52,421 nucleotides of DNA from Candidatus Iainarchaeum sp. (GCA_043812975.1 JBDRLP010000001.1:1-52421), one strand, 5' to 3'. Numbered from the stretch's first letter, positions 6,425 to 36,425 are shown. Notes: generated from the sequence alone by a model not told the origin. Program-made: numbers and translations.

Positions 6425-7296
6425 TCTGCAGCCTCCGCTTCCACAGTTTCCCCCTTCGGGGACTTCGCGTCTGTGGGCTGCGATGCACCCTGCTTTGCAG
6501 GGGGCTGCTCTTCAGTTTTTTCTGAAGTTTCCTCTTTCTTAGTTTCTTTTACTTCTTTTTTCTCTTCAGCTTTAGGTTTTTCTGGTTTTACTTCTACCTT
6601 AGGTTCTTCTTTTTCTTTCTTAGCTTCCGGCTTTTCAGTTACTTTTTCCTTTTTCTCTTCAACCCCTTTACCCTTCCCTTCGGTCAGGGCACCTTTGGCG
6701 GGACTCCCTTTGGTCGCAGGGGCATCTTTCTTTTCGCCTGTTTGAGTTTCTGCATCTTTTCCTGCTGATTCCTCAAACTCTTTCTTTAAATCTTTCTTTG
6801 GTTTTTCATTTTCAATCTTTAATGGTTTTCTATGCCAGCCAAGTTCTGAAACCTCATCTATATGAACCAAATAACCTGGTGCTGAAATTCTTTTTCCTTT
6901 AAGTGAAATATGTCCGTGAACAATGAACTGCCTTGCCTGCTTTGAAGTATTTGCAAGACCTTTTCTCAGGATTATTGTTTGTAATCTTTTTTCAAGTAGT
7001 TCCTCAACTTTCAATCCTAAAACATCATCTAATATAGCGTCAGATTTTACAAGATTGATTTTTCTCAAACCACTCATTAGTTCTTTTTCTCTTACCATTC
7101 TTGTTTCAAGAGGTAATGCCAAAAGACTTCTAGCAATTCGTCTTTTATTCCTTAACCAGGTTGTGTGTTTTCTCAATTCTTTCTTGTTTTTCAAACCATA
7201 AAAATTAACGAGTTTTCTCTCTGATACAAGTAATTGTTTATCCCACTTTTTTCTTGGGGTGCTGTATTGTTTTCTTCTTTTTTTAGGATCGCCCAT
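6421..7296 (-). CDS. rps4: 30S ribosomal protein uS4 with about 120 aa Lys/Glu-rich C-terminal tail carrying two repeat insertions
   Basis: MGDPKKRRKQYSTPRKKW, LEKRLQT, ARQFIVHGHI. Confidence 0.97.
   Translation of the reverse strand: MGDPKKRRKQYSTPRKKWDKQLLVSERKLVNFYGLKNKKELRKHTTWLRNKRRIARSLLALPLETRMVREKELMSGLRKINLVKSDAILDDVLGLKVEELLEKRLQTIILRKGLANTSKQARQFIVHGHISLKGKRISAPGYLVHIDEVSELGWHRKPLKIENEKPKKDLKKEFEESAGKDAETQTGEKKDAPATKGSPAKGALTEGKGKGVEEKKEKVTEKPEAKKEKEEPKVEVKPEKPKAEEKKEVKETKKEETSEKTEEQPPAKQGASQPTDAKSPKGETVEAEAAE
6441..6508 (+). repeat. Palindromic element copy, in frame in the uS4 tail (encodes QPPAKQGASQPTDAKSPKGETV)
   Basis: CCACAG/CTGTGG stem with nested CCCC-TTC-GGGG hairpin, plus CCCTGC-TTT-GCAGGG. 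Confidence 0.85.
6676..6719 (+). repeat. Palindromic element copy, in frame in the uS4 tail (ATKGSPAKGALTEG)
   Basis: GGCGGGACTCCCTTTGGTCGC, near-identical to the copies at 21444 and 36326. Confidence 0.85.
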
Positions 7297-7302
7297 TTTT
7301 CA

Positions 7303-7923
7303 TCACTTTTTTTTGTCCTTTTGTGTATCCTTCTTTGTTACTCCTACAGTAGTACCTTTATTCCTGTGAGTAGACTTATTTCTCTGGCCTCTTACAGGAA
7401 GCTTCCAAGTATGCCTTAATCCTCTGTAAGACTTGATTTCCCCAAGCCTCTGAAGGTCAGTTCTCAGGCCAAATTCAAGTTCACCCATAATTCTGTGAGT
7501 GTCTTCTCCTGTTGTAAAATCATTTTGTCTGTTAAGGCTCCAAGCAGGAATATTAAATTTTGTTGGGTTAAGCACAATCTGTTCGAGCTTTTTTACTTGT
7601 TCTTCTTTAATCTTTCCCAGTTTTTCATTTCCTGAAATTCCGGTTTCTTTTTCAAACACAATAGTCATGTTCTTAGCCATTCTCAAGCCAATCCCTCTGA
7701 TTTTAGTCAAAGCTCTTACTATTGTTGAGCTTCCGTTTAAATCATTGTCAGCAACCCTGACTATAAGTTCAACCTCTTCTACTGGTTTTTGAAATTTCTT
7801 TTCTGCAACCGTTGCGTCGGTGGATGCCCTTTGGGCGGCGTCCGCCTTCGGTAGGACTGCCTTGTCCGTAGCTTTTGCTTCATTTTCGTTAGCTTTTTCT
7901 TGTTCTTTTTTTTCTTCAGTCAT
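7303..7923 (-). CDS. rps13: 30S ribosomal protein uS13 with N-terminal extension
   Basis: ALTKIRGIGLR, SYRGLRHTWKLPVRGQRNKS. Confidence 0.97.
   Translation of the reverse strand: MTEEKKEQEKANENEAKATDKAVLPKADAAQRASTDATVAEKKFQKPVEEVELIVRVADNDLNGSSTIVRALTKIRGIGLRMAKNMTIVFEKETGISGNEKLGKIKEEQVKKLEQIVLNPTKFNIPAWSLNRQNDFTTGEDTHRIMGELEFGLRTDLQRLGEIKSYRGLRHTWKLPVRGQRNKSTHRNKGTTVGVTKKDTQKDKKK
7807..7860 (+). repeat. Palindromic element copy, in frame in the uS13 N-terminus (AVLPKADAAQRASTDATV)
   Basis: ACCG-TTGCGT-CGGT plus GTCCGCC-TTC-GGTAGGAC; matches the copy at 13703. Confidence 0.88.
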
Positions 7924-7927
7924 TTTA

Positions 7928-8143
7928 TCACTCTATTTTTACCAGTTCTTCTTTTGTAATTTTTTTTGCATCAATGGTTTTTCCCGTAGGAAACAAATGT
8001 AAAATATTACATTTTCTCTTTTTCACTTTTGCTCCTTCAACCAAAACATAATTATCATCAACTTTTTTAATCACTACAACCTTTTTCCCGGCTTCTCTTC
8101 CGGCTGTTTTTACACAAATGCTTCCAATGATTATTGAACTCAT
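7928..8143 (-). CDS. rpl14e: 50S ribosomal protein eL14
   Basis: GSICVKTAGREAGKKVVVI, KRKCNILHLFPT. Confidence 0.93.
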   Translation of the reverse strand: MSSIIIGSICVKTAGREAGKKVVVIKKVDDNYVLVEGAKVKKRKCNILHLFPTGKTIDAKKITKEELVKIE

Positions 8144-8475
8144 TTAGATTCCTCTTTTATTTTTATGAATTTTTTAAGTTTAATTGGAACGTCTGTAATG
8201 TCTTTTTTTCCTGAGTCAACAAGAGCATAATTTTCCCAAACTTCTCTCCTAGTTTTGCTTCCAAGAATACCGCCAAAAATTACACTAGGCCTTCTCTTGC
8301 TTTTTGCAAGTTTTCTAACACTTGCTTTTGACTGATTTCCTGTTCCTGGTAATGGTTTTCCTGTAATGCAATCCCTAGCTTTTGAATTTTTTTTCCTGGT
8401 GTACTGGACAACTGTGTTTGCTCCAGGAGTTTTCCTGAACTTTTTTTTCTTAACTCTTGTTTGTCTATCAACCAT
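8140..8475 (-). CDS. rpl34e: 50S ribosomal protein eL34, Zn ligands largely lost
   Basis: FRKTPG, GKPLPG, SKRRPSVIFGG; conserved position next to rpl14e. Confidence 0.85.
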   Translation of the reverse strand: MVDRQTRVKKKKFRKTPGANTVVQYTRKKNSKARDCITGKPLPGTGNQSKASVRKLAKSKRRPSVIFGGILGSKTRREVWENYALVDSGKKDITDVPIKLKKFIKIKEESK

Positions 8476-8974
8476 TTAGTACACCAAAATTTTTCAATAA
8501 TTTTTCCCCGACATTCATTACTATTGTAATTCCAAGATAAACCAAAATATACCAGCCGTACCAGTTTGTTTGTTCATAAAAATCAATTCCCCATGTTCCT
8601 AAATTGAATAAGTCAAATCCGTTTGCAAGCCAAGGGATTGCAAATGGTAAGTCAATGATTGCGTCTCCATAGAAGAAACCTAATATTGCAAATGCCGGAA
8701 TAAAAATCACAACGGAATATTTCATTACTTTCATTGTGCCTCCCATCATTTCCTGCATGTGCTGCATCATTTCTTTTTCCAGTGCTTCCAGTTTGTTTCT
8801 GGATTTTTGATCTTCTTTTCCCATTAACTCCTTCATCTGTGATTGTTTTTCTTTTATTAATACCTGTTTCTTTTTCATTTCATCTCTGTTACCGAACTTT
8901 TTCTGAATTATCTGACTCAGAGTTACCAATACAAGTGATATCAATGCGATGTCAATCATGGTGCTAATAATCAT
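8468..8974 (-). CDS. DUF106 / EMC3-TMCO1 (Oxa1 superfamily) membrane protein
   Basis: TM, cytosolic coiled coil, TM, then WYGWYILV. Conserved location downstream of secY. Confidence 0.88.
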   Translation of the reverse strand: MIISTMIDIALISLVLVTLSQIIQKKFGNRDEMKKKQVLIKEKQSQMKELMGKEDQKSRNKLEALEKEMMQHMQEMMGGTMKVMKYSVVIFIPAFAILGFFYGDAIIDLPFAIPWLANGFDLFNLGTWGIDFYEQTNWYGWYILVYLGITIVMNVGEKLLKNFGVLNG

Positions 8975-8988
8975 AAATAAAACCTCTT

Positions 8989-9026
8989 AGAGAGAAAAAA
9001 GGGAGTATGAAGATTACATAATCTTC
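8989..9026 (-). terminator. Candidate terminator or hairpin after secY
   Basis: GAAGATTA-CA-TAATCTTC inverted repeat (9009-9026), followed on the minus strand by CTCCCTTTTTT. Confidence 0.4.
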
Positions 9027-9038
9027 CACCGATTCCTT

Positions 9039-10463
9039 TTAAAAGCTCCCTCCCTGTCCGAATATTCTTCCAAGCATTGGGTGCATTTCCATTAATTGTT
9101 CCTTAGCTAATTCCTCATACATCCTGTAAACTATTCCTACTGTTAGTAAAATTCCAGTTCCTGAACCTATTGCGCCTGTCAAATCAGCAAATCCTGCTAA
9201 TATTCCGACAAATGCAGATCCAAGGATTGTTATTGTTGGAATATACCTGTCCAAAACCTGTTTTATTACTCTTGGATCTCTTCTAAAACCAGGGATATAC
9301 ATTCCGGCTTTTTGTAACTGGTCAGCAACCTTATCAGGTCCCTGGCCTCCAATTTCAATCCAAAGTCTTCCGAATATTATACATCCAACTGTAAGAATAA
9401 TAAGGTATAATAGTGCGTGGATTATGCTTCCGCCCAAACCAATTATTTGTAAAGTCGTAATGCTTTGAATCATCTGGTCAAACACTAGCGGACTTAATCC
9501 CTCAAGCAGAACCTGAGAAAATAAACCATATGGCGGAATAACTATTTGTGCAATTCCGTTCAATATGTCTCCAAGTATTGGTACGCCTTTTGCTAATGCG
9601 GCCCATATGCTGAAGTTAGCAAATAATGCTACTGCTAATATTACTGGCATGTTGGAAACGTAAAGGAACTTCACAGGATATCTTCCGCCTGTTCCTCTTC
9701 TTCCCATGGTTATTGGTATATTGACATGTATGCCCTCTGCATAAACAACTACAAAGAAAACAATTAATGTAAAAATTATTGGAAGTAAAGCAACAATGAA
9801 TGCGCTTGCAATATTAGTTCCGATTTCTCTGAAGAACAAGAAGAACAATCCTGATCCTTCAGTTAGTGAAATGTTCATTGCTAAGTCTAATGGCGAGAAT
9901 AGTCTCCAGATTATTCCTCCTGCAACTCCCCCTGCAATAAATAATCCTACTCCAGAGCCGATTCCGTACTTTGAAACAACCTCATCGAGATATAGAAGAA
10001 CTATTGATCCTAAAGCAACCTGTACTATAACAAATACAAACATTCCTTCTGCCGGAGCCAAAAAACCTGTAAGAGTGTAAACAATTGCTTCAAAGAAACT
10101 CAAAATAATTGTTAATAACTTTTGAACACCACTGAACTTTGCTTTATCTTCTTGATTTGAAAGATCTAATTTTACAATGCCTCCTCCAATCAGCAATTGT
10201 AATACAATTGATGCAAGTACAATAGGGCCGATTCCTACTGTTATTAATGAACCAATTTGTGATGCAAGTATAACCTGTAACTGTTCTAACTGGCCAGCGC
10301 TTTGTGCATTTAAACCAATAACAGTGATGTTTCCCATTATGAAAAACACAAGCAGAACTATTCCTGTCCAAATAAGTCTTTTCTTTAACGGCTGTTTTTC
10401 TTCAGGCGCCTTTACTTCAGGCAATAAACTGTAAATAGGCTGTAAAACTTCAAATAAACCCAT
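9039..10463 (-). CDS. secY: Preprotein translocase SecY
   Basis: GIGPIVLASIVLQLL, SKYGIGSGVGLFIA, YPVKFLYVSNMPVIL, IPGFRRDP, GTGILLTV. Confidence 0.98.
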   Translation of the reverse strand: MGLFEVLQPIYSLLPEVKAPEEKQPLKKRLIWTGIVLLVFFIMGNITVIGLNAQSAGQLEQLQVILASQIGSLITVGIGPIVLASIVLQLLIGGGIVKLDLSNQEDKAKFSGVQKLLTIILSFFEAIVYTLTGFLAPAEGMFVFVIVQVALGSIVLLYLDEVVSKYGIGSGVGLFIAGGVAGGIIWRLFSPLDLAMNISLTEGSGLFFLFFREIGTNIASAFIVALLPIIFTLIVFFVVVYAEGIHVNIPITMGRRGTGGRYPVKFLYVSNMPVILAVALFANFSIWAALAKGVPILGDILNGIAQIVIPPYGLFSQVLLEGLSPLVFDQMIQSITTLQIIGLGGSIIHALLYLIILTVGCIIFGRLWIEIGGQGPDKVADQLQKAGMYIPGFRRDPRVIKQVLDRYIPTITILGSAFVGILAGFADLTGAIGSGTGILLTVGIVYRMYEELAKEQLMEMHPMLGRIFGQGGSF

Positions 10464-10945
10464 TAAGCGACCTCTTTTTCAGTTTCTTCCATTTCTTCAG
10501 CCTCAGTTTCTTTTGCTTCAAAAGGATCTTCTTCTGAAACACTTCCGCCTGCTTTTTGGATTTTTTCTTCTGCCATTTTGGAAGCATTTGCATTTTCAAT
10601 TTTTATTTTGTGTGCAATAATTCCGTTTCCAAGGACTTTTCCAAATCCAAGTGCTTTACCATCAATTACAATAATGCTGCCATCTTTCTTTATTTTTCCA
10701 TTAGCCAACCAGTTTTCAATATTATCATTGATATAAGCGAGGCTGATTGTATTTTCTTTTTTTCTTGGTTTTAATGTTCTCTTTACTCCAAAGTCAACGT
10801 AATGTTTGCTAAACTTATGTTTATGTGAACCGGCTTTTCCTACTCCGCCTCTTGAGCCTGCACCTCTTCTGTTTTTGGTGCCTCCGCCTCCGTGAGTTCT
10901 CTGGCCTCTTAATTTATTTTTCTTTCTTCTTCTTCGTACAACCAT
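10463..10945 (-). CDS. rpl15: 50S ribosomal protein uL15 with acidic tail
   Basis: RGQRTHGGG, RRGAGSRGGVGKAG, GKVLGNG. Confidence 0.96.
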   Translation of the reverse strand: MVVRRRRKKNKLRGQRTHGGGGTKNRRGAGSRGGVGKAGSHKHKFSKHYVDFGVKRTLKPRKKENTISLAYINDNIENWLANGKIKKDGSIIVIDGKALGFGKVLGNGIIAHKIKIENANASKMAEEKIQKAGGSVSEEDPFEAKETEAEEMEETEKEVA

Positions 10946-10953
10946 TTTTTCAC

Positions 10954-11415
10954 CTAGTTCATACTAATTATAAGTTTGTTAATTTCTTCTCCTCGATAGC
11001 CAAGTGCTCCACCTACTGTGAATGGCTTTTTTATACCTGCTCTCTTGTGTCCTTTTCTGGGAGGATGTAATCTTATCACAGGAACAATTCCTAAATCCTT
11101 AAGTTTTACTTTTCCTTCGATAACACTTTTAGCTAATTCTTCAAAGCTGTTAATTTTCTTTTCTTTTAAAAATTCAAGTATAATTTTCTTTTTGCCTTCT
11201 AATCTTCCTCTTTTTGCAAGAACCTTTGTAAGAGTTTCTTCGTTTATTTCCCCGAAAGCAACGTAATCTTTTATTTTTTCAACCATTTTTTTGGAAGGGT
11301 TATCATCTTTGACCAAAACCATGTGGTTTGGTCTGAACAATCTTAAATTTTCCATAGTGTATGTTAAACTAGGGTTAACGTTCACAGTTCCTCTTATTCT
11401 AATAACTGCTATCAT
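10954..11415 (-). CDS. rpl30: 50S ribosomal protein uL30
   Basis: IAVIRIRG, RLHPPRKG, GALGYRGEEINKLI. Confidence 0.96.
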   Translation of the reverse strand: MIAVIRIRGTVNVNPSLTYTMENLRLFRPNHMVLVKDDNPSKKMVEKIKDYVAFGEINEETLTKVLAKRGRLEGKKKIILEFLKEKKINSFEELAKSVIEGKVKLKDLGIVPVIRLHPPRKGHKRAGIKKPFTVGGALGYRGEEINKLIISMN

Positions 11416-11501
11416 CTTTTAGCCTCCAATTCAACAGTTGCGTCTGTTGGGTACGCATACGTCCACCCTATCTGCGATAGGGTATAAATATTCAAATTCA
11501 T
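11412..11501 (-). CDS. Bridge mini-ORF, 29 aa (MNLNIYTLSQIGWTYAYPTDATVELEAKR)
   Basis: ATG overlaps the uS5 stop (ATGA); its TGA overlaps the uL30 ATG. Translation is inferred, not shown. Confidence 0.5.
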   Translation of the reverse strand: MNLNIYTLSQIGWTYAYPTDATVELEAKR

Positions 11502-11517
11502 CTTTTAGCCTCCAATT
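11412..11517 (+). repeat. Junction element (11432-11497) flanked by a 20-bp direct repeat of the uS5/uL30 junction
   Basis: TCATCTTTTAGCCTCCAATT at 11412-11431 and 11498-11517. Hairpins CAACAG-TTGCGT-CTGTTG and ACCCTATC-TGC-GATAGGGT. Confidence 0.92.
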
Positions 11518-12211
11518 TAGTGCTAATGTCATCTGAAACTCTGACCCTGCTTGTTGCAGCCAAAGCATCAATTGCAGCCTGAACAAAGTCTAAAGTTGAA
11601 GCAGTGTTTCCTTCACTTTTACTCCAAACATCTCTGATTCCAGCAAACTCTAGAACTGCCTTAATGTTATCCCCCGCAACCAAACCAGTTCCTTTTGGAG
11701 CTGGTAAAAGTTTTACTCTTACAGAGGATGATTTCCCTATAACATTAAATGGGACTGAGTGACTTTCTTTACATCTGCACTCCCAGCTTCCGCATGCTTT
11801 TCTTACTTTTTTAATGTTTAATTTTGCGTTTCTTGTTGCCTTGTTTATTGCTGGAAACTTTTCCTTGTCCTTAGCTGTACCTAAACCAATGTAAGATTGC
11901 CCGTCCCCGATAAGAACTGCTGCTCTGAATGAAAAATTTCTTCCCTGTCTTGTTACTTTTGTAGTTTTCTTAAAGTCAACCATTTTGTCTTTCAAATCAG
12001 GTACTAAAACATCAACTATTTGAGGTTCCATTATTCTGAAACCTTTTTTAAAGAAATCATCAAGGTTTGTTATTTTGTCTGCTTTAACTAATTTTCCAGC
12101 TTCTGTTTTTGGAACCCAGTCTGAAACAACCTTTACCCTGTCTTCTTCTTTTCTTATAAGTCTTTCTTCTTCAGTTTGTACTCTTCTTGGTCTTCTGGCC
12201 ATTTTACTCAC
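11498..12211 (-). CDS. rps5: 30S ribosomal protein uS5
   Basis: WVPKTEAGKLV, CGSWECRC, RVKLLPAPKGTGLVAG. Confidence 0.97.
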   Translation of the reverse strand: MSKMARRPRRVQTEEERLIRKEEDRVKVVSDWVPKTEAGKLVKADKITNLDDFFKKGFRIMEPQIVDVLVPDLKDKMVDFKKTTKVTRQGRNFSFRAAVLIGDGQSYIGLGTAKDKEKFPAINKATRNAKLNIKKVRKACGSWECRCKESHSVPFNVIGKSSSVRVKLLPAPKGTGLVAGDNIKAVLEFAGIRDVWSKSEGNTASTLDFVQAAIDALAATSRVRVSDDISTKLEAKR

Positions 12212-12713
12212 CTAGCTCCTTATCAATATTATTTTTTGTTTCTTCAAAATTTTTCTCAACATCCTCGCTAATATGTTTTCCGCTAACTCTGCCTTTTTTC
12301 GGGAACACCGTTTCATCAGCAGGAATATTTAATCCAGCATCAATTGCTCCTTTTAATGCACCAAATATTCTTCCGCCGTGGACAGGGGTTACTAAACCTA
12401 AGTCCAGAACTGCTTCTCCAACCTTTTCCTTCATTGCTTTTTTTGCACAAACATAACCTGTCAAGTACGCTGCAGGAATGTTTCCAGTGTGGCCTTTCCA
12501 ACCGAACTTTTTCAATGAACTTGTTGTAAAGTGAGATCTAACAACGTCTCCTTCTATTTTGTAAGTAACAATTTCACAGATAGTTGAGTTGTTGCTTTTT
12601 CTTACAACTAATCGGTCCTTGTTTGATTTTAACAATCCAAGTCTTTTCTTGTAATTAGTTTTGGATTCTCTTCTTCTTCTGAACTTTACTTTATAAGTTG
12701 GGCCTGAACTCAT
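12204..12713 (-). CDS. rpl18: 50S ribosomal protein uL18
   Basis: GPTYKVKFRRRRESKTNYKKR, NIPAAYLTG, KGAIDAGLNIP. Confidence 0.97.
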   Translation of the reverse strand: MSSGPTYKVKFRRRRESKTNYKKRLGLLKSNKDRLVVRKSNNSTICEIVTYKIEGDVVRSHFTTSSLKKFGWKGHTGNIPAAYLTGYVCAKKAMKEKVGEAVLDLGLVTPVHGGRIFGALKGAIDAGLNIPADETVFPKKGRVSGKHISEDVEKNFEETKNNIDKELGE

Positions 12714-13150
12714 TTTTTAGCCTCCCCTACCATTGCTTGAACATACTTCTTTCCCTTGAAGTATCCTCCTTTAATCATCAAATAAATCTGTCTTGCTGGT
12801 TTTTTCAGTTTAACACCGCTTTCTTTCATTTCTTTCAGAACTCTTCTTTGAGCTCTGACATTCTTAATCCATTTTTCTTTCTTGTTGGATCTTGCGTTTT
12901 TCTTTCCTGTTCTTTTACCATGGCCTTTTTTTCTTCCTTTCTTTTTCTTTGCTTTTAAGACTCTGGCCTTTGATTTGCTCTGAAGATTATCCTTTCTTTT
13001 TTTGATAACTCCATCTTTGATAAGTATTCTGACATCCTCTTTTGTCATGGCTTCTTTAACTTTTTGTCCTTCGCTTGGACTGATGTATACTTTGGTTTTC
13101 CCAATCTTGAGGAGTGCTGCTGTGATTGTTTTTGCTTTTTTGTTATCCAT
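12710..13150 (-). CDS. rpl19e: 50S ribosomal protein eL19
   Basis: AMTKEDVRILIKDGVI, GHGKRTGKKNAR, KWIKNVRAQRR. Confidence 0.96.
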   Translation of the reverse strand: MDNKKAKTITAALLKIGKTKVYISPSEGQKVKEAMTKEDVRILIKDGVIKKRKDNLQSKSKARVLKAKKKKGRKKGHGKRTGKKNARSNKKEKWIKNVRAQRRVLKEMKESGVKLKKPARQIYLMIKGGYFKGKKYVQAMVGEAKK

Positions 13151-13265
13151 TAACGGACACCTCCGTTAGCGAGGTGTGCACCTCATTGCAAAACCTTCGG
13201 TTTTGCGATGCCCCGTATCCGAAGGATACAAGGTTGGTAGCACATACATAAAGTTTCAAATTCAT
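13143..13265 (-). CDS. Bridge mini-ORF, 40 aa (MNLKLYVCATNLVSFGYGASQNRRFCNEVHTSLTEVSVNG)
   Basis: ATG overlaps the eL32 stop; TAA overlaps the eL19 start (ATGGATAA). Confidence 0.45.
   Translation of the reverse strand: MNLKLYVCATNLVSFGYGASQNRRFCNEVHTSLTEVSVNG
13151..13261 (+). repeat. Junction element with SD-containing hairpins between eL32 and eL19
   Basis: CACCTCCG...GAGGTGTGCAC...GTAGCAC shared with the copies at 39044 and 40958. Nested GCAAAACC-TTC-GGTTTTGC and GTATCC-GAA-GGATAC hairpins. Confidence 0.85.
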
Positions 13266-13897
13266 GGGTTTAACACCTTGATTCCTTTTTCTATTGCCTT
13301 GTCAACTATTGCCAGTTTTTTCTTTCTTCCGAGTCCTGAAGCAACTCTTATTGCGTGTTTGTCAGGAACATTGTTTATTTCCTGGATTGTTTTAACATTA
13401 AATTCTCTATATCCGCTTGGGTGAATGTCCCTAATTTCTTTAGGCGTCCTGAAACCCTCTTTTGGGGTATAACCATCACACATTTCGTGCTTTACGTCAA
13501 TTCCTCTTGGGAATCTCCATTTGTTCCACTTCGGGTTACTTTTCTTTCTAAGGCTTCTTTTTCCAAACCTTCCTCTGAAAGTAGGAGTTCCCTGTTTCTG
13601 GTTAACTTTTCTTCTTGTTTTAGCAACCGCAGCGTCGGTTTTAATTTGAACCTTTCTGCTCTTTTTCACTTTCTTTGGTTTTGCTTCTTTTGAATCTTTA
13701 ACTACCGTTGCGTCGGTAGGGTGCGCGTCCGCCTTCGGCAGGACTGCTTTAACATCTTTTTTAGCATCAGTTTTTTTTGTTTTAGTTTTAGGTGCAGCTG
13801 CTTTAATTTTCTCTTTAACAGCAACCTTTGCTTTAGGTTTTTCTTTTACTGTTTCTGCTTTTTTAGTTTCTTTTTTTTCTGTTTTCTTTTTAACCAT
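13262..13897 (-). CDS. rpl32e: 50S ribosomal protein eL32 with about 95 aa Lys-rich N-terminal extension
   Basis: PTFRGR, KWRFPRGID, IRDIHPSGYRE. Confidence 0.95.
   Translation of the reverse strand: MVKKKTEKKETKKAETVKEKPKAKVAVKEKIKAAAPKTKTKKTDAKKDVKAVLPKADAHPTDATVVKDSKEAKPKKVKKSRKVQIKTDAAVAKTRRKVNQKQGTPTFRGRFGKRSLRKKSNPKWNKWRFPRGIDVKHEMCDGYTPKEGFRTPKEIRDIHPSGYREFNVKTIQEINNVPDKHAIRVASGLGRKKKLAIVDKAIEKGIKVLNP
13696..13753 (+). repeat. Palindromic element copy, in frame in eL32 (AVLPKADAHPTDATV), flanked by 7-bp direct repeats
   Basis: CTTTAAC at 13696-13702 and 13747-13753; insert plus one repeat is 51 nt (17 codons). CTACCG-TTGCGT-CGGTAG and GTCCGCC-TTC-GGCAGGAC hairpins. Confidence 0.9.
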
Positions 13898-13907
13898 TTC
13901 AATTCAC

Positions 13908-14447
13908 CTAAATTGTTTTCGCTTTCTCCGTAATGTAAATTCCGTCAGTGTAAACTCTAATATCTTTTCCTTTGATTTTTGTAGCTTGTTCCATGTTAGC
14001 TGCGGTCTGGCCAACGTGTTCTTTATTCTGTCCTGATACTGTAATGTCTTTTCCTTTTATCTCGACTTTTGTATTTCCAACAATCTTTGCTTTTCTTTGT
14101 TTTTTTCCGCCTGCAAGATTGTTTATTTCAATAATTCCGTTATTTACTTTTACTGTCATTGGGAAGTGACTGTAAACAACTTCTAATTTGTAAACAAAAT
14201 CTTCTTGTAATCCTTTCATAAGGTTTTTGACGTGAGATCCTATTGTTTTGCTTTCCGCCAGAACATTTTTTCTTTCGATTTTTATCCAGACTTCGATTTT
14301 TGAATCCGCTTTTTTAAGCAAAACTTCTGTTGATCTGAAGTGTCTTATGTTTTCTTTCCCGTTAGCACTTACTTTAATGTCGTTTCCATTAAGCTCTACT
14401 TGTATTCCTTCAGGAATTTCAATTGTTTCTACTAGTTTTTCTGCCAT
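13908..14447 (-). CDS. rpl6: 50S ribosomal protein uL6
   Basis: YSHFPM, VGQTAANMEQ, KDIRVYTDGIYI. Confidence 0.97.
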   Translation of the reverse strand: MAEKLVETIEIPEGIQVELNGNDIKVSANGKENIRHFRSTEVLLKKADSKIEVWIKIERKNVLAESKTIGSHVKNLMKGLQEDFVYKLEVVYSHFPMTVKVNNGIIEINNLAGGKKQRKAKIVGNTKVEIKGKDITVSGQNKEHVGQTAANMEQATKIKGKDIRVYTDGIYITEKAKTI

Positions 14448-14457
14448 TTTTAATCAC

Positions 14458-14850: not shown

Positions 14851-14865
14851 CCAAAATCATCTCCT

Positions 14866-16837: not shown

Positions 16838-16838
16838 T

Positions 16839-18120: not shown

Positions 18121-18122
18121 TC

Positions 18123-29363: not shown

Positions 29364-32300
29364 TTAGTCCATGAAAAATGAAGCAGGTTTTACTTCAGGA
29401 TCCATTCCTTTTCTCTTTCTTATTTCTTCAATAGTTGATTTTTGTAACTCACGTGGCAGTAACTCGTATCCTGCGTATTCAGCAGTCCAAAGAGCTCTTC
29501 CTTGAGTAGCCCCCCTGATGTTGCTTGAGAATCCGATTAGTTCTTTTACTGGGGCTTTTCCGATTATAATACTAGAATCTCCTTCAGTCCTCATTTCATT
29601 AATTTGAGTCCTTCTGGAGCCTAGTTCATTACTTACTGCGCCCAGGTAAGTTTCTGGAACTGTAATTGTAAGTTTTTGTTTTGGCTCATACAACACAGCA
29701 TCTGCTGAAAGCATACAAGCATAGCATCCTCTTGTTACTGTTGGCAACATTTGCGCAGGTCCCCTGTGAATTGCATCTTCGTGTAATGTAGCGTCTTCAA
29801 TTACAACTTTTACTCCAAAGCATTTTTCTTTTGCTAATGGTCCCTGATCCATTACATCAGTAAAACCCTGAATAACCAATTCTCTGATTTCGTGTAAAGC
29901 TTCAATTCCTCTTGTTGCATCAACTAAAACACAGTTGTTGTGTACTGCCCAGATTTTTTTGGATTCTTCTCTTCCAAAACCCATTTCCTGGAACATTGTA
30001 ATCTTTTCTTTATCTTTTGGCTTAACTTTTCCATCAAAATGTGACTTGATAAGATTCTGTCTTGTTTCCTCATCAATTAATTCAACGTGCAATTTCAGCT
30101 TGTTGTGTTTGTTAGGGCTTTTTGCCTCAACTGTTGGTGAATCCTTTCCAATAGTTTCACGGTAAACAACAATTGGCTGTGAAACTGTAATTGGAATGTT
30201 GTGGTGTTTTTCAATTCTATATTGAGTAATTTCTAAGTGTAATTCCCCCATTCCTGAAAGTAAATGTTCGCCGGTCTCCTGATTGATTGTGGCTCTTATG
30301 TTAGGGTCTTCTTTGGTAATTTGTCTTATAGTTTCAATTAACTTTGGTAAATCTTTTGTGCTTTTTGCTTCAACTGAAATTGTTATTACTGGTTCTGCTT
30401 CACTCATAAAACTTTCGAATGGTTTTATTTCTTCTGAAGCAATTGTTTCTCCAGCATAAACTTCTTTCAAACCTACAAGTGCTACAATGTTTCCTGCAGG
30501 AACTTCATTAGCTTCAATAAAATCCGGGCCCATAAAAATCCCGACTTTCTGAATCTGGATTTCTTTTTTTCCGCCGACCAAATAAACTTTACTTCCTTTT
30601 TTTACTTTTCCTGAATAACATCTTCCTGTTGCAATATCTCCTGAATGTTTATCAACACTAACATCAGTAACCATCATTGAGAATGGACTATTTTCATTAC
30701 AAGTAATCATTCCTTTTCCCATTTCGCTTTCCTTTTCCCCTTTCCAGATTATAGGCATCCTGTATTTTTGTGCCTCAATAGGATTTGGCAAATGAGTAAT
30801 AACCATTTCAAGTACAGCGTCACTTAAATGACTTTTTTCAGCAAGTGATTTTTGATCTTCATTTTTTAAGTATTCGTAAACCTGTTTGAAATTAATTTTA
30901 GTAGCTTCCATTCTTGGAACTGATACTGCCCAGTTATTGTAAGCTGATCCAAAGCACACAGAACCATCCTGGACTTTTACAGTCCACTCGTTTTTGAATC
31001 CCAGAGGACAGTTTTTTGAAATTAAATTATTAACATTAGCAATAACTTTCACAAACTTTTCCTGCATCTGCTGTTCAGTAACCTGCAGTTCGTTAATAAG
31101 CCTGTCAACTTTGTTAATATACAAAACAGGTTTTACGTATTCTCTCAAAGCCTGCCTTATTACTGTTTCTGTCTGCGGCATTACTCCTTCAACAGCATCA
31201 ACAACTAACACAACTCCGTCAACAGCTCTCATTGCTCTGATTACATCCCCTCCAAAGTCAACATGCCCCGGAGTATCAATAAGGTTGATTAAGTGCTCTG
31301 TGTCTTTGTACTTGTGTAATAGTGAAATGTTTGCAGCATTAATTGTTATTCCTCTTTCCTGTTCCTGATCCTCAGAATCCATTACAAGTTGCTTTCCAGC
31401 TAACTCTGAACTCATTAATCCTGATGCAGAAATAAGGTTATCTGTCATCGTGGTGTTGTGAACAACTATTGTTTCTGCTACAAAATTTTTTGTTTCTGGA
31501 ACACTAAAATCATAAATTGTTTCCTCAAAACCATCTTTTATTCCAGAAACCTCGATAAAAGCTAATTGACTAACATCTATTGCGGAGTTAATCCCTTTTT
31601 CTTTTAGTTTTAAAACCATTTTTTGATAAGTGTTTCTTGTCGGTATATAAATTTCGTTTTCGTATTTGTAATAATGTTTGTCTATTTCATTTTTTGATAA
31701 TTGTTTTCCTTCCCTTGATTCTTTAAATCCATTCATGGGTATTAGATCACATACCTGGCTTCCAACAATGGTTTTTTCCAGTTCTTTTGCTTTTTTCATT
31801 TTTTCCGGCAAAAAGAAACCAATATTTTTAACAAAGTTTGAGAATGATTCCCCGCTGATGGATATTGTATTGTCTTTTTCCTTTATTGCTACACATCCGA
31901 ATCTGTTTAACAATAATGGCAGCTCATCAATCATTTGATTGCTGGCACTGCTAATTGTGATTGCTTTTCTGCCTGTTTCAACGCTTCCATCAGTATCGAA
32001 GTAGCCCTTTAAAAATTTGGTAACCAACTCAGATGGAGACTTTTGCAGGAATTTTGATATTTTTACGTTGTGTGATTTTTTCTTTAAAGGATAATCAAAC
32101 AGTGCTTTTAGAATGTTTGTTAATGTTTTACTCACGCCTATTTCCGGTGTTTTTCCTTCATAGTTTCTGTTGTGTGTTTTTAATCCAAATTCTTTGCATA
32201 TTCTTTTGAATTCTTTTCCGAGTAAAGGTTTCCCGACAACAAATTTGCTTTCAGTTCCGTCCCCTATCATTAATCCCGCTAAATAAAATAATTCTTTATA

Positions 32301-33086
32301 GTTTGGTTCCCATTTTAAGTAATCGCTTCTTCTTGTTGCAATTCCACCAATCCAATTAACAATCGCTTCTTCTTCAAACTCAAAGTAATTAGATATTCCG
32401 AATAAATCAGTTAGTTGATATTTCCCGTTCCAAATACAATGATAGAATGATTTTTCTTTTAGGTTAGTTTTAATGTTTTTATAAATTTTATCAATTCCTT
32501 CTTCTAAAATTTTGTTTTTTAAATTTTCAGAAGAGTCTTTTTTTAACTTTGCATAAAAATTGTTTTTTGAAAGTATTTTTAGTAATTCCAGTGAAACATC
32601 CATTTCAGCTATTGTTTTTGTTTCTCTTGCCGTAACAATTCTTTGTCCTTTTTGTATTTCCTCTGCTTTCAAATAAGATAATTCTTTTCCATCAAAAGTA
32701 AGGAACTTGTGTTCTGGTGTTGTGGAAATACTAGATCCGTTTCTTAGGGTAATTTCTTTTGTGTTTCCGCCCTTTAGTTTCCATGCATGGGAAATTTTTT
32801 TTGTGACTATTTTACCTGTTTTTGTATCTACAGAAAAAACTTTGATGTCTTTATTTAAAGCGTAAACAATTTCCGAATTGTTTTCTTTTACTTTTTCACC
32901 ATAAAGAGAAGAGTCATTAAATAATTCTCTTGCGGTTATAAAATTCCCGTTTTCTAATTGTATTCTAGTGTCCGGGGCAACACATTTACCATGGTCAATG
33001 TGGGCAACAATCCCGATGTTTCGGATGTTTTCTCTTTTGTTCATCAGCTGTGCAGCTAATTTTACAATATCTTCTTTTTTTACCAT
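29364..33086 (-). CDS. fusA: Elongation factor 2 precursor with intein (mature protein 730 aa)
   Basis: AHIDHGK|TTMTDNL, ERGITI, DTPGHVDF, NKVDR; diphthamide site DAIHRG. Confidence 0.97.
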   Translation of the reverse strand: MVKKEDIVKLAAQLMNKRENIRNIGIVAHIDHGKCVAPDTRIQLENGNFITARELFNDSSLYGEKVKENNSEIVYALNKDIKVFSVDTKTGKIVTKKISHAWKLKGGNTKEITLRNGSSISTTPEHKFLTFDGKELSYLKAEEIQKGQRIVTARETKTIAEMDVSLELLKILSKNNFYAKLKKDSSENLKNKILEEGIDKIYKNIKTNLKEKSFYHCIWNGKYQLTDLFGISNYFEFEEEAIVNWIGGIATRRSDYLKWEPNYKELFYLAGLMIGDGTESKFVVGKPLLGKEFKRICKEFGLKTHNRNYEGKTPEIGVSKTLTNILKALFDYPLKKKSHNVKISKFLQKSPSELVTKFLKGYFDTDGSVETGRKAITISSASNQMIDELPLLLNRFGCVAIKEKDNTISISGESFSNFVKNIGFFLPEKMKKAKELEKTIVGSQVCDLIPMNGFKESREGKQLSKNEIDKHYYKYENEIYIPTRNTYQKMVLKLKEKGINSAIDVSQLAFIEVSGIKDGFEETIYDFSVPETKNFVAETIVVHNTTMTDNLISASGLMSSELAGKQLVMDSEDQEQERGITINAANISLLHKYKDTEHLINLIDTPGHVDFGGDVIRAMRAVDGVVLVVDAVEGVMPQTETVIRQALREYVKPVLYINKVDRLINELQVTEQQMQEKFVKVIANVNNLISKNCPLGFKNEWTVKVQDGSVCFGSAYNNWAVSVPRMEATKINFKQVYEYLKNEDQKSLAEKSHLSDAVLEMVITHLPNPIEAQKYRMPIIWKGEKESEMGKGMITCNENSPFSMMVTDVSVDKHSGDIATGRCYSGKVKKGSKVYLVGGKKEIQIQKVGIFMGPDFIEANEVPAGNIVALVGLKEVYAGETIASEEIKPFESFMSEAEPVITISVEAKSTKDLPKLIETIRQITKEDPNIRATINQETGEHLLSGMGELHLEITQYRIEKHHNIPITVSQPIVVYRETIGKDSPTVEAKSPNKHNKLKLHVELIDEETRQNLIKSHFDGKVKPKDKEKITMFQEMGFGREESKKIWAVHNNCVLVDATRGIEALHEIRELVIQGFTDVMDQGPLAKEKCFGVKVVIEDATLHEDAIHRGPAQMLPTVTRGCYACMLSADAVLYEPKQKLTITVPETYLGAVSNELGSRRTQINEMRTEGDSSIIIGKAPVKELIGFSSNIRGATQGRALWTAEYAGYELLPRELQKSTIEEIRKRKGMDPEVKPASFFMD
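31455..32984 (-). mobile_element. Intein (510 aa) with LAGLIDADG homing endonuclease, in the EF-2 P-loop
   Basis: Begins CVAPDT after GK; ends NFVAETIVVHN before T; TTPEHKF block B; LAGLMIGDG and FLKGYFDTDGS endonuclease motifs. Confidence 0.96.
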
Positions 33087-34186: not shown

Positions 34187-34342
34187 TTATCTGATTCTTA
34201 CTTCTTCAACGCCGCTTGCGATCGGCACCCTTACGGGCACATGCGGTACCGCGTCCACCTCACTTTGTTCGGTAGGACTTAGTTCCTTGTTCGCAAACTT
34301 TTTCTAATAATTCTTTTCATCACCTAATTCTTACTTCTTCAA
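34187..34342 (+). repeat. Composite junction element (34207-34294) between nusA and rps12, with a duplicated NusA C-terminus
   Basis: ATTCTTACTTCTTCAA at 34194-34209 and 34327-34342; modules shared with 21001 and 21444. Confidence 0.88.
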
Positions 34343-34733
34343 TATTATAATTTCTTTTTGCTAATTCTTTTATCTTGTTCAATCTCCCTAAATTTTGTAA
34401 TATTACACTTTTGTTTGCATTATCTGTTTTTACTATTGCAATATTTCTTTTATTCATTTTTTTTATTTTTACCCCTTCAACACTCGCCTTGTAAAAGGCT
34501 TTGCTGAAGAACTCTTTCGGATTGGAAGAATACTCATAAAGCTCAATATTTTTTCCAAGTTGTTTTTTTACTTTTTCTATTGTGGAACCATTCTTTCCGA
34601 TTGCCTTTCTCATACCTTCATTAGGAACAAGATACACAATCGTATTTTCTTCCACGAAGCAGTCTTTAGCGCTTACTTTTGCTATTGAATCCAATGCATT
34701 GATGAGTCTTATTTCGTCAAATCCGATTTTCAA
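34320..34733 (-). CDS. nusA: Transcription elongation factor NusA, archaeal KH type
   Basis: KAIGKNGS, IELYEYS; conserved position between rpl30e and rps12. Confidence 0.93.
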   Translation of the reverse strand: MKIGFDEIRLINALDSIAKVSAKDCFVEENTIVYLVPNEGMRKAIGKNGSTIEKVKKQLGKNIELYEYSSNPKEFFSKAFYKASVEGVKIKKMNKRNIAIVKTDNANKSVILQNLGRLNKIKELAKRNYNIEEVRIR

Positions 34734-34739
34734 ATAATA

Positions 34740-35048
34740 TCACTGTTTTGCTATCTCAAGTACTTTGCTCTTACCCTGATCTTGTATGACCATAGTACTG
34801 ATTGTGAATGGTTTTCCGCAAACACCGCCCAATTCAAGGCCGCTTCCATCAAAAATGTAATGGGGTGTATTGCCAATTTCAGCAAAAGAAACGAGTTTTT
34901 CCTTTACTAGTTTTGGAGCATTGTTTGCTATAATAATTAACCTTCCAGAACCGTTTTTAAGGCTTTTCTCTGAGTTTTTTGTGCCAAAAATTACTTTTCC
35001 CGTGTCTACTGCACGCCTTATTTCTTTTAAAACATCAACTTTAGCCAT
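34740..35048 (-). CDS. rpl30e: 50S ribosomal protein eL30
   Basis: AVDTGKVIFG, IIIANN, LELGGVCGKPF. Confidence 0.96.
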   Translation of the reverse strand: MAKVDVLKEIRRAVDTGKVIFGTKNSEKSLKNGSGRLIIIANNAPKLVKEKLVSFAEIGNTPHYIFDGSGLELGGVCGKPFTISTMVIQDQGKSKVLEIAKQ

Positions 35049-35063
35049 TTGCTTTCATTCTCC

Positions 35064-36425
35064 TTATTTTTTCATTACAAGAGTTACCCTGCCTGTTCCA
35101 ACCTTAATAGGCTGACCAACTATAATGTTTTCAACAACACCTTCAAGAGTTTCTATTTCTCCCTTGAATGCTGCGTCTAACAAGTGTTTTACTGTTTCCT
35201 CAAATGCTGCTCTTGCGAAAGGACTTGCTTTTCCTCTTGTGATTCCTGTTCTTACAATTCCTCTGATTTCTCCGTCAAAGCACATTGAATCAGCTAATAG
35301 CATTATATGTCTTATGTCAACTGCAATACTATTATCCTTCAGAACTCCAGATAATTCATTTACAATCGCCATTCTTCCTGCTTCAATTCCCAATACTTTG
35401 CTGATTTCTTTAATGTCATTAGTGGTTGTTTTTGAACCATTAATTTCCGGCAGTTTCACAATTGCTTTTAAGTTAGTGCCTCTGGTTTTAATGACTTTCT
35501 CGTTGTTCTCATCTATAAGAATAACTTTTTCAATTCCTCTGATTCCCTGAATCCTTGTTGATTTCAGTTTGTTCATGGTTCTTCTGATTTTTAAAAGTGC
35601 TTCATTTTTGAAAATAAAATCAAGCAAATACTTGTCTTTTCTTTTCCCCTCCATCTTTATGTGCTTATTGATTTTTGCAACAAGCTCATCAATATCAACA
35701 TTTCTTGATTCGATTGCTTCCTTATCAAGTTCAATTGTAACTTTTCCCTTGAATAAATCTTCATGAATTTTAATAACATCATCAATTCTTACATCAATTA
35801 ATGTTTTTGCAAAAGCATCAAGTTTTTTCTCATCTTTATTTAATTCTTCATCATCGATGTAAATTGTCATTATAGGATATTTAGCTTTTAATCTCCCGTC
35901 AACAATTTCTTCAACCCTCTGGATTCCTGATCCAACACTTACTTCTGCAGAACCCGCATAGTGTTTTGTTCTAAGTGTCAATTGTGTTCCTGGTTCCCCA
36001 AGACTTTGTGCAGTAATAATTCCTACTGCTTCTCCAGGTTCAACCATGCTTTTTTCATATCTTTCTTTAACTTGTGAAAATAGTTTTTCTTTTTCCTTGT
36101 CATTAATTTTTAATTCATTAGCGACTGTTTCAAAATCCATTAATACTTTTTTAGGAATTCCTTCTGTTTCAAAAAGATCTCCTTGTACAAATACTCTTTC
36201 AACTTCCACTACTTCTTTTTTGGTTGTTTTTTTTGGTTTCTTAACTGTTTTAGTGGTTTTTTTAGCTGTGGGTTTTGCCTTTTCACTCTTATCTTTGGTT
36301 GTGGTCTTTTTCATAGTTTTCTTAACCCCAGCACCCTTACGGGTACCTTCGGCGGGACTCCTTTTGGTCGCTGCTTTTTTTGTTTCTTTCTTTTCTTTTT
36401 TCTTGGTTTCTTTTTTTGCAACCAT
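35064..36425 (-). CDS. rpoA2: RNA polymerase subunit Rpo1C (A'') with Lys/Thr-rich N-terminal extension
   Basis: [38 protein letters not shown]. Confidence 0.97.
36326..36372 (+). repeat. Palindromic element copy, in frame in Rpo1C ([16 protein letters not shown])
   Basis: Near-identical to the copy at 21444. Confidence 0.92.

Follow-up and report, generated by a model that had tools for sequence, protein, structure and literature searches.

A putatively mobile family of very small GC-rich repeat modules in the ribosomal-protein and RNA polymerase genes of a DPANN archaeon

The stretch of DNA analyzed here, referred to as the window, comprises 52,421 nucleotides from Candidatus Iainarchaeum sp. 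(GCA_043812975.1, JBDRLP010000001.1:1-52421) with an overall GC content of 36%; it carries genes for ribosomal proteins, RNA polymerase subunits and elongation factors, almost all of them on the minus strand. Short GC-rich sequences lie in frame in the terminal tails of several of these proteins and in the spacers between genes, and it is quite probable that they represent a recently expanded family of very small, non-coding repeat modules that copies itself to new sites. Translation of the minus-strand open reading frames (ORFs) gave eight in-frame copies in seven proteins, namely uS4 (two copies), uS13, eL32, uL24, uL23, uL4 and the RNA polymerase subunit RpoA'', and the DNA of these copies forms islands of 60 to 66% GC in the 36% GC background. 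A first-pass annotation had listed these eight peptides and had placed them in Lys/Glu-rich terminal tails, and both statements were borne out. Long N- or C-terminal tails of this kind are present on many ribosomal proteins of the window organism and its relatives alike, and all coding copies lie outside Pfam domain envelopes. In an AlphaFold model of uL23, residues 1 to 61 have a confidence score (pLDDT) below 50 and no secondary structure, so that the tail is predicted to be disordered; the element occupies residues 19 to 34, and the model is confident from residue 67 onward.

The elements are mosaic in structure and draw on at least four small modules, given here in the sense orientation. 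Module A, CGACCRAAGGRAGTCCC-loop-GGGG, is read in the host frame as (A)TKGSPxG; module B5, GTCCTRCC-GAA-GGYGGAC, as VLPKADA; module B3 (or C), CYACMG-ACGCAA-CKGTRG, as PTDATV; and a GNRA module, ACCC-GNRA-GGGT with the loops GTAA, GTGA or GCAA, as TRKG or TREG. The basic A form measures 24 to 27 nt and was seen in the related loci L001, L007 and L026 and in the uL23 copy of L005, while copies as a whole measure 24 to 70 nt within coding sequence and reach about 115 nt in intergenic DNA. Longer copies arise where one module is placed within the loop of another: an A module lies within a B3 loop at 15550-15637 of the window and in loci L007 and L041, a GNRA hairpin is nested in 34201-34272, as seen against 20997-21051, and the long form found in uL23 and RpoA'' carries two hairpins within the CCC...GGGG loop of the basic A form. 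The earlier claim that "the same element" recurs in all of these genes thus holds for a shared family and fails for a single element, since at least four nesting and recombining modules are involved. The coding copies are as follows.

21444-21489, minus strand: N-terminal tail of uL23, long-form A-type copy (H1 core, GCC-GAA-GGT hairpin, ACCC-GTAA-GGGT hairpin, GCAGGGG)
36326-36371, minus strand: N-terminal tail of RpoA'' (Rpo1C), long-form A-type copy
6663-6717, minus strand: C-terminal tail of uS4, composite A-type copy, peptide ATKGSPAKGALTEGKGKG, which includes ATKGSPAKGA
16444-16477, minus strand: C-terminal tail of uL24, A-type copy (H1 plus an ACCC-GTGA-GGGT hairpin), peptide VTKGNTREGAG
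7806-7857, minus strand: N-terminal tail of uS13, B-type copy (B5 hairpin, middle part, B3 hairpin), peptide VLPKADAAQRASTDATV
13702-13744, minus strand: N-terminal tail of eL32, B-type copy, peptide VLPKADAHPTDATV
21568-21637, minus strand: tail of uL4, B5 hairpin and further GC-rich hairpins that make up the last 23 codons, peptide VLPKVDAPSRPLGPRRGRARSGE
6441-6477, minus strand: end of the uS4 tail, B3/C-type hairpin CCACAG...CTGTGG, peptide PTDAKSPKGETV
6486-6504, minus strand: end of the uS4 tail, a separate hairpin CCCTGC-AAA-GCAGGG, absent from the first-pass annotation
3632-3649, minus strand: N-terminal tail of uS2, decayed A-type copy GCGACAAAAGAAAATCCC, read as AATKENP, likewise absent from that annotation

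Recurrence at the DNA level far exceeds chance. Allowing up to three mismatches, the 17-mer A core GACCRAAGGRAGTCCCG has five matches in the window, all on the minus strand, compared with 0.13 in shuffled sequences; the B5 20-mer GTCCTRCCGAAGGYGGACGC has four matches (0.00 expected) and the B3 13-mer CCGACGCAACGGT five (0.07 expected). A repeat search of the window joined positions 6687, 15559, 16447, 21459 and 36341 into one family (D7) at 67 to 91% identity and placed the uS2 copy in another (D14). The copies are 88 to 100% identical as DNA, synonymous sites included. The uL23 and RpoA'' copies, for instance, show few differences over 46 nt, two of which are synonymous Ala changes (GCT/GCA upstream and GCA/GCT downstream) that jointly keep pairing as CUGC/GCAG in one case and CAGC/GCUG in the other. 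Their DNA is about 65% GC (against 35%), and their codons are also foreign to the host: the GC content at third codon positions is 58% inside the elements and 27% in host genes, and CCC makes up 7 of the 14 Pro codons, ACC 10 of the 14 Thr codons and CGN 6 of the 10 Arg codons within elements, compared with 2%, 13% and 4%, respectively, in the host. The same modules are moreover present in noncoding intergenic DNA, and, on the evidence of the sequences, the unit being copied is the DNA and not the peptide.

For each type of module, a single reading frame is used. In the window and its relatives alike, all archaeal A copies that lie in coding sequence are read as GCG ACC AAA GGN AGT CCC, and the A copies (from at least ten separate events) and the B copies (from about five) keep to one frame each. 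Two of the three sense frames are open in the long A form, the remaining one being closed by the TAA of its GTAA loop, so that the earlier observation of a constant frame in the presence of a second open one was correct for the A copies. Part of the explanation lies in the insertion site, as A-type inserts sit 3' of a G (ATTG^, GCTG^, GCAG^, ACG^) and, in Lys/Glu tails, 65% of G residues occupy codon position 1. An N-terminal tail from a bacterium (L110) seems to contain the A core in a different frame, read as RPKGVPS. Stop codons are so scarce in GC-rich sequence that whether noncoding copies stay open in the coding frame carries little information. One could argue from the invariant frame that the peptides themselves are the selected unit, being short linear modification or binding motifs (TKGSP, LPKADA) that were gained repeatedly; they are hydrophilic and suit disordered tails, and many Diapherotrites orthologues have similar peptides in their tails. 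We regard this as extremely unlikely, because such selection would not account for the identity at synonymous sites, the use of codons that the host avoids or the noncoding copies, because substitutions keep stems and not residues, and because close relatives lack the motifs and the uS2 copy has drifted to AATKENP.

It is also conceivable that the inserts are removed from the product, either as mini-introns, which the archaeal splicing endonuclease would cut and RtcB would join, or by translational bypass, so that the mature proteins would lack the peptides. The window does contain an RtcB gene (26238-27395), the elements are compact structured RNAs, and GC-rich elements are bypassed during translation in yeast mitochondria. 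However, all coding copies have a length that is a multiple of three and are stop-free in the host frame, even though one frame of the long A form contains TAA, and removal would have lifted exactly this constraint. No bulge-helix-bulge arrangement was recognized in the predicted folds, with no formal search for such motifs having been made. Taken together, this makes removal very unlikely.

The proposal that the copies were inserted recently rests on comparison of filled and empty sites in four sets of related DNA. An assembly artifact was ruled out, as the elements recur in independent assemblies (NCBI, ENA, JGI and Logan). The closest homologues of the uL23 and RpoA'' proteins come from uncultured archaea, several of them named Candidatus Diapherotrites, which places the window host, a small-celled archaeon with an AT-rich genome, in the Diapherotrites/Iainarchaeota group of the DPANN archaea. 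The related DNA was the following.

CEPX01 assembly, GCA_001048895.1: locus L127, which covers window 5116-18188 at 88 to 91% nucleotide identity, and locus L131, from the RNA polymerase region, compared over window ~36.2-36.5 kb
L130, an ENA contig with an identical RpoA'' protein: RNA polymerase region, compared over window ~34.1-36.5 kb
Metagenome-assembled genome (MAG) "archaeon P6-4", GCA_024653905.1: loci L005, L010, L026 and L132, at 82 to 91% nucleotide identity, covering most of window 1-23808 and the RNA polymerase region
More distant uL23 loci, L001-L007: uL23 region only

The RpoA'' element corresponds to an empty site, AAAGCAG^AAAAG, in L130 and L131, and most of about 30 RpoA'' orthologues lack such a motif, a few having copies of their own elsewhere in the tail. 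The uL24 element is a clean 33-nt insertion for which the L005 site is empty, and L127 has a B-type element at about the position of the A-type copy of the window. In uS4, the element at 6663-6717 is absent in L127, and P6-4 (L010) contains an independent A copy that lies 27 nt further 3', beyond a conserved segment of 27 nt; both L127 and L010 lack the elements at 6441-6504. The uS13 element is present with substitutions in L127 and absent in P6-4. The uL4 element is absent in L005, whose uL4 protein is 15 residues shorter (285 versus 300 amino acids) and ends in a plain K/E/A tail. Near the uL23 site, the closest relative (L005) has the 27-nt A form only; other uL23 relatives have none, one or two copies at differing positions in the tail, and L001 contains a 24-nt insert, GCGACCAAAGGAAGTCCCGGAGGG, that is absent in L002-L004 despite flanks that are about 93% identical. 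At eL32, the element is bounded by a 7-nt direct repeat, GTTAAAG (13696-13702 and 13747-13753), where L127 has an empty site with a single ATTAAAG and P6-4 has a different B variant together with an A copy upstream. Also in eL32, we noticed a native segment, CCGACGCTGCGGT (KTDAAVA; 13626-13638, minus strand), that is two bases off the B3 module, is kept in L127 and P6-4 and is absent in L002, which is more distant; the segment may represent an ancient copy that became fixed, or the resemblance may be due to chance.

These comparisons bear out the view of the first-pass annotation that one repeat family was inserted in frame, and show the insertions to be recent, which is supported by empty sites, foreign codons and noncoding copies and by the stem covariation described below, and they answer the alternative it had raised, namely that the peptides are ancient, ortholog-wide motifs: the orthologues of relatives at 83 to 91% nucleotide identity have clean empty sites or a different module instead. 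Gains are reciprocal, P6-4 having its own copies in uL3 (TKATKGS), uS4, eL32 (two) and uS2, where its tail holds an intact AATKGSPEGE. Where the window and L127 overlap, at least 10 elements were counted in the former and two in the latter, so that the window genome looks like the product of a recent burst. Only one to three of the eight coding copies are shared with relatives at 83 to 91% identity, the uS2 copy is decaying toward AT, and the eL32 site holds an element in both the window and P6-4 but none in L127, even though L127 is nearer to the window by nucleotide identity, a pattern that fits either a precise loss or separate insertions. Turnover is therefore fast and not slow, and the suggestion that essential genes shelter the element from deletion was not upheld. 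The related suggestion that disordered tails act as landing pads fared better, in that the same tail positions were struck by different modules in different relatives (uL24 and eL32); survivorship would explain this pattern equally well, however, and, per base, gene junctions were struck harder than tails.

The first-pass annotation had also called for an analysis of hairpin-preserving substitutions, and the B5 and B3 stems, each of 18 nt, do covary. Pairing holds in 94.6% of the cells of the B5 stem, where both partners have changed at three pairs (U:A to C:G, C:G to G:C, and A:U and G:C); for the B3 stem the figure is 94.4%, and its pair 3:18 is found as AU, UA and CG. Slid controls pair at 17 to 54% only. 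Copies of the B and C types fold better than shuffled sequences (z = -2.6 to -3.0), the uS4 hairpin at 6441-6477, whose loop holds a truncated A-like insert, having a z value of -3.0.

Covarying stems are what would be expected if the hairpins were kept for a role in the mRNA of the operons for ribosomal proteins and RNA polymerase, which are highly expressed, as stabilizers, processing signals, ribosome pause sites or protein binding sites; the repeats would then have a regulatory function and would not be passengers, with the peptides being a side effect. Consistent with this, all module matches lie on the coding strand, in the direction of transcription; several stem positions are G-U only in the sense RNA (e.g., GUACCC/GGGUGC); some intergenic inserts pair the Shine-Dalgarno sequence of the next gene (GGAGGTG) with CACCTC; and copies are concentrated in translation and transcription operons, with none in the metabolic genes at 43 to 48.6 kb. 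On the other hand, presence varies between genomes that are 83 to 91% identical, with different modules at the same site, so that no individual copy can be required, and the uS2 copy has decayed. Stem mismatches are about as often A-C in the sense strand, corresponding to G-U in the antisense strand, and the sense RNA is thus not clearly the folded strand; wobble pairs possible only in sense or only in antisense are about equally common and give no verdict. EF-1a, EF-2 and uS10 are also highly expressed and carry no copies. We therefore consider an mRNA role unlikely as the reason for the maintenance of the hairpins.

Further support for a self-copying repeat family comes from about ten intergenic clusters, absent from the first-pass annotation, that are made of the same modules.

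15530-15680, minus strand: uS4e-uL5 composite of a B-type element, a nested hairpin and a nested A-type element (15550-15637)
11412-11517, minus strand: uS5-uL30 insert ending in the B3 hairpin CAACAG-ACGCAA-CTGTTG
19194-19394, minus strand: two tandem uL22-uS3 inserts, each ending in CCACAG-CCGAAA-CTGTGG (repeat family D11)
20997-21051, minus strand: uL23-uL2 B-type element with the B5 hairpin GCCCTACC-AAA-GGTGGGC, which shows a compensatory change from U:A to C:G
34194-34342, minus strand: NusA-uS12 insert, a B5 hairpin whose loop is enlarged, plus a nested GNRA hairpin
49706-49810, minus strand: cluster between convergent genes with nested CCACAG...CTGTGG hairpins, related to 19298-19346 and 6441-6477
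39041-39136, minus strand: RpoB'-RpoA' insert with a GTGCTAC...GTGCAC hairpin and a CACCTC/GGAGGTG hairpin
13153-13262 (eL32-eL19) and 40960-41011, minus strand: inserts similar to that at 39041-39136
42498-42577: a further GC-rich hairpin cluster

At four of these sites, the gene junction itself was duplicated. The uS4e-uL5 insert is bounded by a 20-nt duplication of AAGCAGAGTGATTATTATGG (15530-15549 and 15661-15680), and this junction is single and without an insert in both relatives compared. A 20-nt duplication of AATTGGAGGCTAAAAGATGA bounds the uS5-uL30 insert, which is absent in L127 and L010; three copies of a 19- to 20-nt junction, ATGGAGGCCAAATAATGAT, accompany the two uL22-uS3 inserts, where L005 has no spacer; and the NusA-uS12 insert, absent in L130, L131 and L132, lies between copies of TTGAAGAAGTAAGAAT that match exactly over 16 nt and over about 20 nt with mismatches. 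Each of the four junctions is single in relatives, and each duplication retains the upstream stop codon as well as the downstream Shine-Dalgarno sequence and start codon. Target duplications thus vary from 0 to 1 nt for the A type, through 7 nt at eL32, to 16 to 20 nt at the four junctions.

Several additional features of the intergenic inserts were observed. The inserts at 13153-13262, 39041-39136 and 40960-41011 have GTGCTAC...GTGCACACCTC...CGGAGGTG in common, and their CACCTC resembles the anti-Shine-Dalgarno sequence of 16S rRNA and pairs with the GGAGGTG Shine-Dalgarno sequence of the next gene in predicted folds. In relatives, 13153-13262 and 39041-39136 correspond to short, plain spacers, with a plain AGGTGA Shine-Dalgarno sequence at the former and the eL32-eL19 insert absent in L127. 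On these predicted structures, inserts of the GTGCTAC type may impose masking of the Shine-Dalgarno sequence on eL19, RpoA' and RpoB'. At the RpoB''-RpoB' junction, P6-4 (L132, 1505-1556) has a B-type GTCCTACCGAAGGTGGAC and the window (40960-41011) has GTGCTACCGCAGGTGCAC, with one stem pair flipped from C:G to G:C, which means either that one copy evolved by compensatory change or that two subfamily members were inserted separately. Lastly, the 5' ends of several intergenic inserts are AT-rich and have TTTATA-like boxes (ATTTGAATATTTATACCC and ATTTGAAACTTTATGTATG; ~11480-11497 and 13235-13255, minus strand) which, by their sequence, could be archaeal promoter boxes and would then split operons.

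The intergenic copies also bear on the idea that the sequences spread between similar low-complexity Lys/Glu tails by ectopic recombination or gene conversion, which would keep the frame automatically. Such exchange would account for the one frame seen in all archaeal coding copies and for the lack of target duplications at A-type copies, and the uL23 and RpoA'' copies are 79% identical over 102 nt including flanks (family D9), with an identical left flank, AAAGCT, in several copies. However, the same modules occur in gene junctions and inside other modules' loops, places that share no homology with the tails, and intergenic inserts have target duplications. In addition, the flank similarity is expected from the polypurine composition of Lys codons alone, and the A core recurs in unrelated bacterial genomes in mostly noncoding-looking DNA. 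Gene conversion as the general explanation is thus improbable.

For the self-copying repeat family, the following scenario can be envisaged. New copies would arise in trans, through an enzyme whose gene lies elsewhere in the genome, in a process that would recognize a single strand, in the form of either DNA hairpins or an RNA intermediate. Recognition of a single strand would account for the strict orientation, for the tendency to enter loops and for target duplications of variable length, and the varying duplication length together with the strict single orientation would likewise point to a strand-specific copying process. Copies would then survive only where harmless, namely between genes, with the stop codon, Shine-Dalgarno sequence and start codon of the junction duplicated, or in disordered Lys/Glu tails when stop-free and a multiple of three in length; the tail copies would simply be translated as short peptides rich in Ala, Thr, Lys, Gly, Ser and Pro.

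Several points weigh against this interpretation. The 52-kb window encodes no transposase, reverse transcriptase or HUH enzyme, so that the mobilizing activity can only be inferred. As nearly all window genes share one strand, one cannot tell whether the copies are oriented with respect to transcription or to replication. A-type copies lack target duplications (0 to 1 nt), and the 16- to 20-nt duplications were seen only at tight gene junctions; the latter exceed, to our knowledge, those of any ordinary transposon and may reflect the events that survived more than the mechanism. A-type copies do not fold better than shuffled sequences under standard energy models (z of about 0), and the term palindromic is thus apt only for the B and C modules; the A core may instead form a short hairpin with two tandem G-A pairs (C-GA-CC-RAA-GG-RA-G). 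With G residues at codon position 1 in 65% of cases, ten events would fall in one frame with a probability of about 1% (0.65 to the power of 10), so that G phase leaves the frame of ten or more A events partly unexplained, and selection on the peptides or copying between tails may also contribute to it. Translation of the inserts is deduced from their length and lack of stop codons, and the orthology of some shared sites (uL23 and eL32) is uncertain.

The A core was also found far outside the DPANN archaea. A scan with the 17-mer over GTDB, with one genome per species (596 Gb), matched more than 119 stretches; chance predicts hundreds of matches in this amount of sequence, and the count itself therefore means little. 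Among the matches listed, however, the context is not random: the preceding base is C in 96 of 122 (p ~1e-28), a purine stands two bases ahead of it in 95 of 122, and GGG follows within 3 to 16 nt in 56 of 122. With the GGG, the architecture is as in the archaeon, e.g., GTCCC-GTA-GGGAC and CCC-GAGCGAAGCCGA-GGGG. Carriers among the matches listed are Omnitrophota (more than a dozen loci), Planctomycetota, Acidobacteriota, Saprospiraceae and other Bacteroidota, the proteobacterial Rhodocyclales, Xanthomonadales and Burkholderiales, Chloroflexota, Saccharibacteria and Peribacteria (Patescibacteria), a Bathyarchaeia MAG and DPANN relatives. Several genomes are multicopy, one Acidobacteriaceae chromosome having at least seven loci, and the bacterial copies are mostly noncoding-looking. 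The core of 17 to 19 nt, [G/A]CGACCRAAGGRAGTCCCG (loci L008-L126), often lies within tandem heptamer arrays (gaacgac in Omnitrophota; gaatgaa/tgtgctga in Saprospiraceae), and it is also found in the loops of hairpins that resemble repetitive extragenic palindromes (REPs), such as gtcatcctgagcgaag... in Acidobacteria and ctctccc...gggagag in Xanthomonas; at several proteobacterial loci it adjoins typical GTAGG...CCTAC REP hairpins. The B5, B3 and GNRA modules were not found at the bacterial A-core loci. The A module ([G/A]CGACCRAAGGRAGTCCC-loop-GGG) might be a pan-prokaryotic, ultrasmall mobile element or the site of a widely shared enzyme, a proposal that we put forward tentatively and as less likely than not to be right, and the cross-domain occurrence may stem from shared ancestry, from transfer or from convergence on a site used by a common enzyme. 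Universal RNAs were considered as a template for the A core, but comparison by eye with domain IV of the signal recognition particle RNA and with CR-I of RNase P gave only a partial, purine-driven resemblance, and the idea was dropped.

The elements were not found among described families. With Rfam 15 at the gathering score, the window gave tRNA-Leu only and 18 related loci gave nothing over the elements, and relaxed Rfam scans of two element regions gave chance-level matches. Viral contigs had no exact match to the A or B cores, and hence there is no sign of a viral vector. No description of these elements was found in the literature on repeats of DPANN or Diapherotrites or on in-frame palindromic elements in archaea, and searches of literature text with the element sequences and peptides returned unrelated primer matches only.

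The first-pass annotation had likened the insertions to Rickettsia palindromic elements (RPEs; Ogata et al. 2000). In a published summary (PMC10969869), these are described as ten families of about 150 bp, from Rickettsia only, that consist of non-autonomous hairpin repeats inserted in frame in unrelated genes, to which they add a conserved peptide, with about half of the copies within ORFs and tolerated where the protein fold allows. The elements described here are similar in that they are short, non-autonomous and hairpin forming and lie in frame in unrelated ORFs with a family-specific peptide; measured against that description, they differ in their size of 24 to 70 nt, the eight in-frame copies measuring 34 to 70 nt, in having four or more interchangeable, nesting modules and in their archaeal host, and their coding copies are confined to the terminal disordered tails of ribosomal proteins and an RNA polymerase subunit. 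The analogy hence stands for the behavior and not for membership.

In size, they are closer to the cyanobacterial small dispersed repeats SDR1 to SDR8, which Elhai et al. (2008) are said to have described as hairpins of 21 to 27 nt with compensatory changes, nested insertion and no encoded enzyme. SDR mobility was reportedly deduced from filled and empty sites, and these elements are said to lie often in tandem heptamer arrays and to be confined to one cyanobacterial subgroup; in-frame colonization of ribosomal-protein genes is reportedly not among their described features. Compared with this description, the basic A form of 24 to 27 nt, the nesting, the filled and empty sites and the lack of an encoded enzyme are all shared, as are the heptamer arrays around bacterial A-core copies (gaacgac and gaatgaa). 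Compensatory hairpin changes are shared by the B5 and B3 stems, whereas an A-type fold is unsupported by energy models, and the archaeal host and the in-frame position in ribosomal-protein genes set the present elements apart. By these descriptions, the behavior is the RPE phenomenon, and the size, nesting and lack of an encoded enzyme are closest to the SDRs, but the family is a member of neither.

Other small repeats are less similar. REPs and REPINs are GC-rich imperfect palindromes of 20 to 40 nt that are moved in trans by REP-associated tyrosine transposases (RAYTs), which are IS200/IS605-like Y1 enzymes (PMC3116915). Strand-specific, single-strand movement without target duplication, as in that system, fits the A type. 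However, no cataloged B5, B3 or H1 copy starts with GTAG, the starts being CGACC, (A/C)AGTCC and C(C/T)AC; REPs are extragenic, whereas the elements here also lie within genes, and B-type and intergenic inserts have duplications of 7 to 20 nt. A RAYT (Y1 transposase) gene was not found in the 52-kb window. MITEs, the miniature inverted-repeat transposable elements of archaea and bacteria, are non-autonomous, usually 50 to 500 bp long and bounded by terminal inverted repeats derived from a parent insertion sequence (PMC10969869). Like them, the present elements are non-autonomous and multicopy, have some target duplications and can give in-frame fusions. Their inverted repeats form internal stems, and the composite ends AGTCC.../...CNGTDG are not mutually complementary. 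Unlike in MITEs, target duplication is not fixed (0 to 1, 7 or 16 to 20 nt), and there is no known parent insertion sequence. GC clusters in yeast mitochondria are GC-rich hairpins in an AT-rich organelle genome, and GC-rich palindromes have likewise spread in the AT-rich organelle genome of Volvox (PMC2670323). The present elements resemble both as nested, GC-rich hairpins of an AT-rich genome that occupy spacers and occasionally coding regions in frame, but the yeast and Volvox elements are organellar, and their sequences and hosts are unrelated.

The information-processing genes of the window are the following.

~2.8-23.6 kb, minus strand: spc/S10-like ribosomal-protein clusters, from uS2 to uL3
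RNA polymerase genes: RpoA'', RpoA', RpoB', RpoB'' and RpoH
Other genes: uS10, EF-1a, EF-2, uS7, uS12, NusA and eL30

Two of the window's other loci are of note in their own right. The EF-2 gene (29364-33086, minus strand) encodes 1240 amino acids, compared with 730 in L130 and L132; the extra 510 or so residues follow the GTP-binding motif (GKCV...) and contain a LAGLIDADG-like sequence, LAGLMIGDG, and from this sequence the segment looks like an intein that is absent in the sister genomes. Two adjacent ORFs (23915-25762 and 25774-26151, minus strand) have signal peptide-like N termini and extremely Tyr/Asn-rich, low-complexity sequences (YYYNNYW...), with no repeat elements in or near them.

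Ribosomal proteins and RNA polymerase are the most conserved of proteins, and yet their disordered tails turn over fast here via the insertion of tiny repeats, which extends the phenomenon known from Rickettsia to the Archaea and to a class of 24 to 50 nt, at the lower limit of mobile DNA. Insertions in universal proteins serve as phylogenetic markers for DPANN archaea (bioRxiv 10.64898/2026.06.17.729505), and recurrent, repeat-derived insertions at hot spots would mislead phylogenies that are based on them; gene callers and alignment trimming will, in addition, handle the element segments inconsistently. Since the intergenic copies split tight junctions and bring new Shine-Dalgarno hairpins, they may also rewire operon expression. 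The sharing of the A core between domains, if real, would imply an unrecognized and very widespread mobilizing activity, and, should the module move between domains or depend on a conserved machinery, no smaller cross-domain mobile element would be known, and this one would be able to write peptides into universal proteins.

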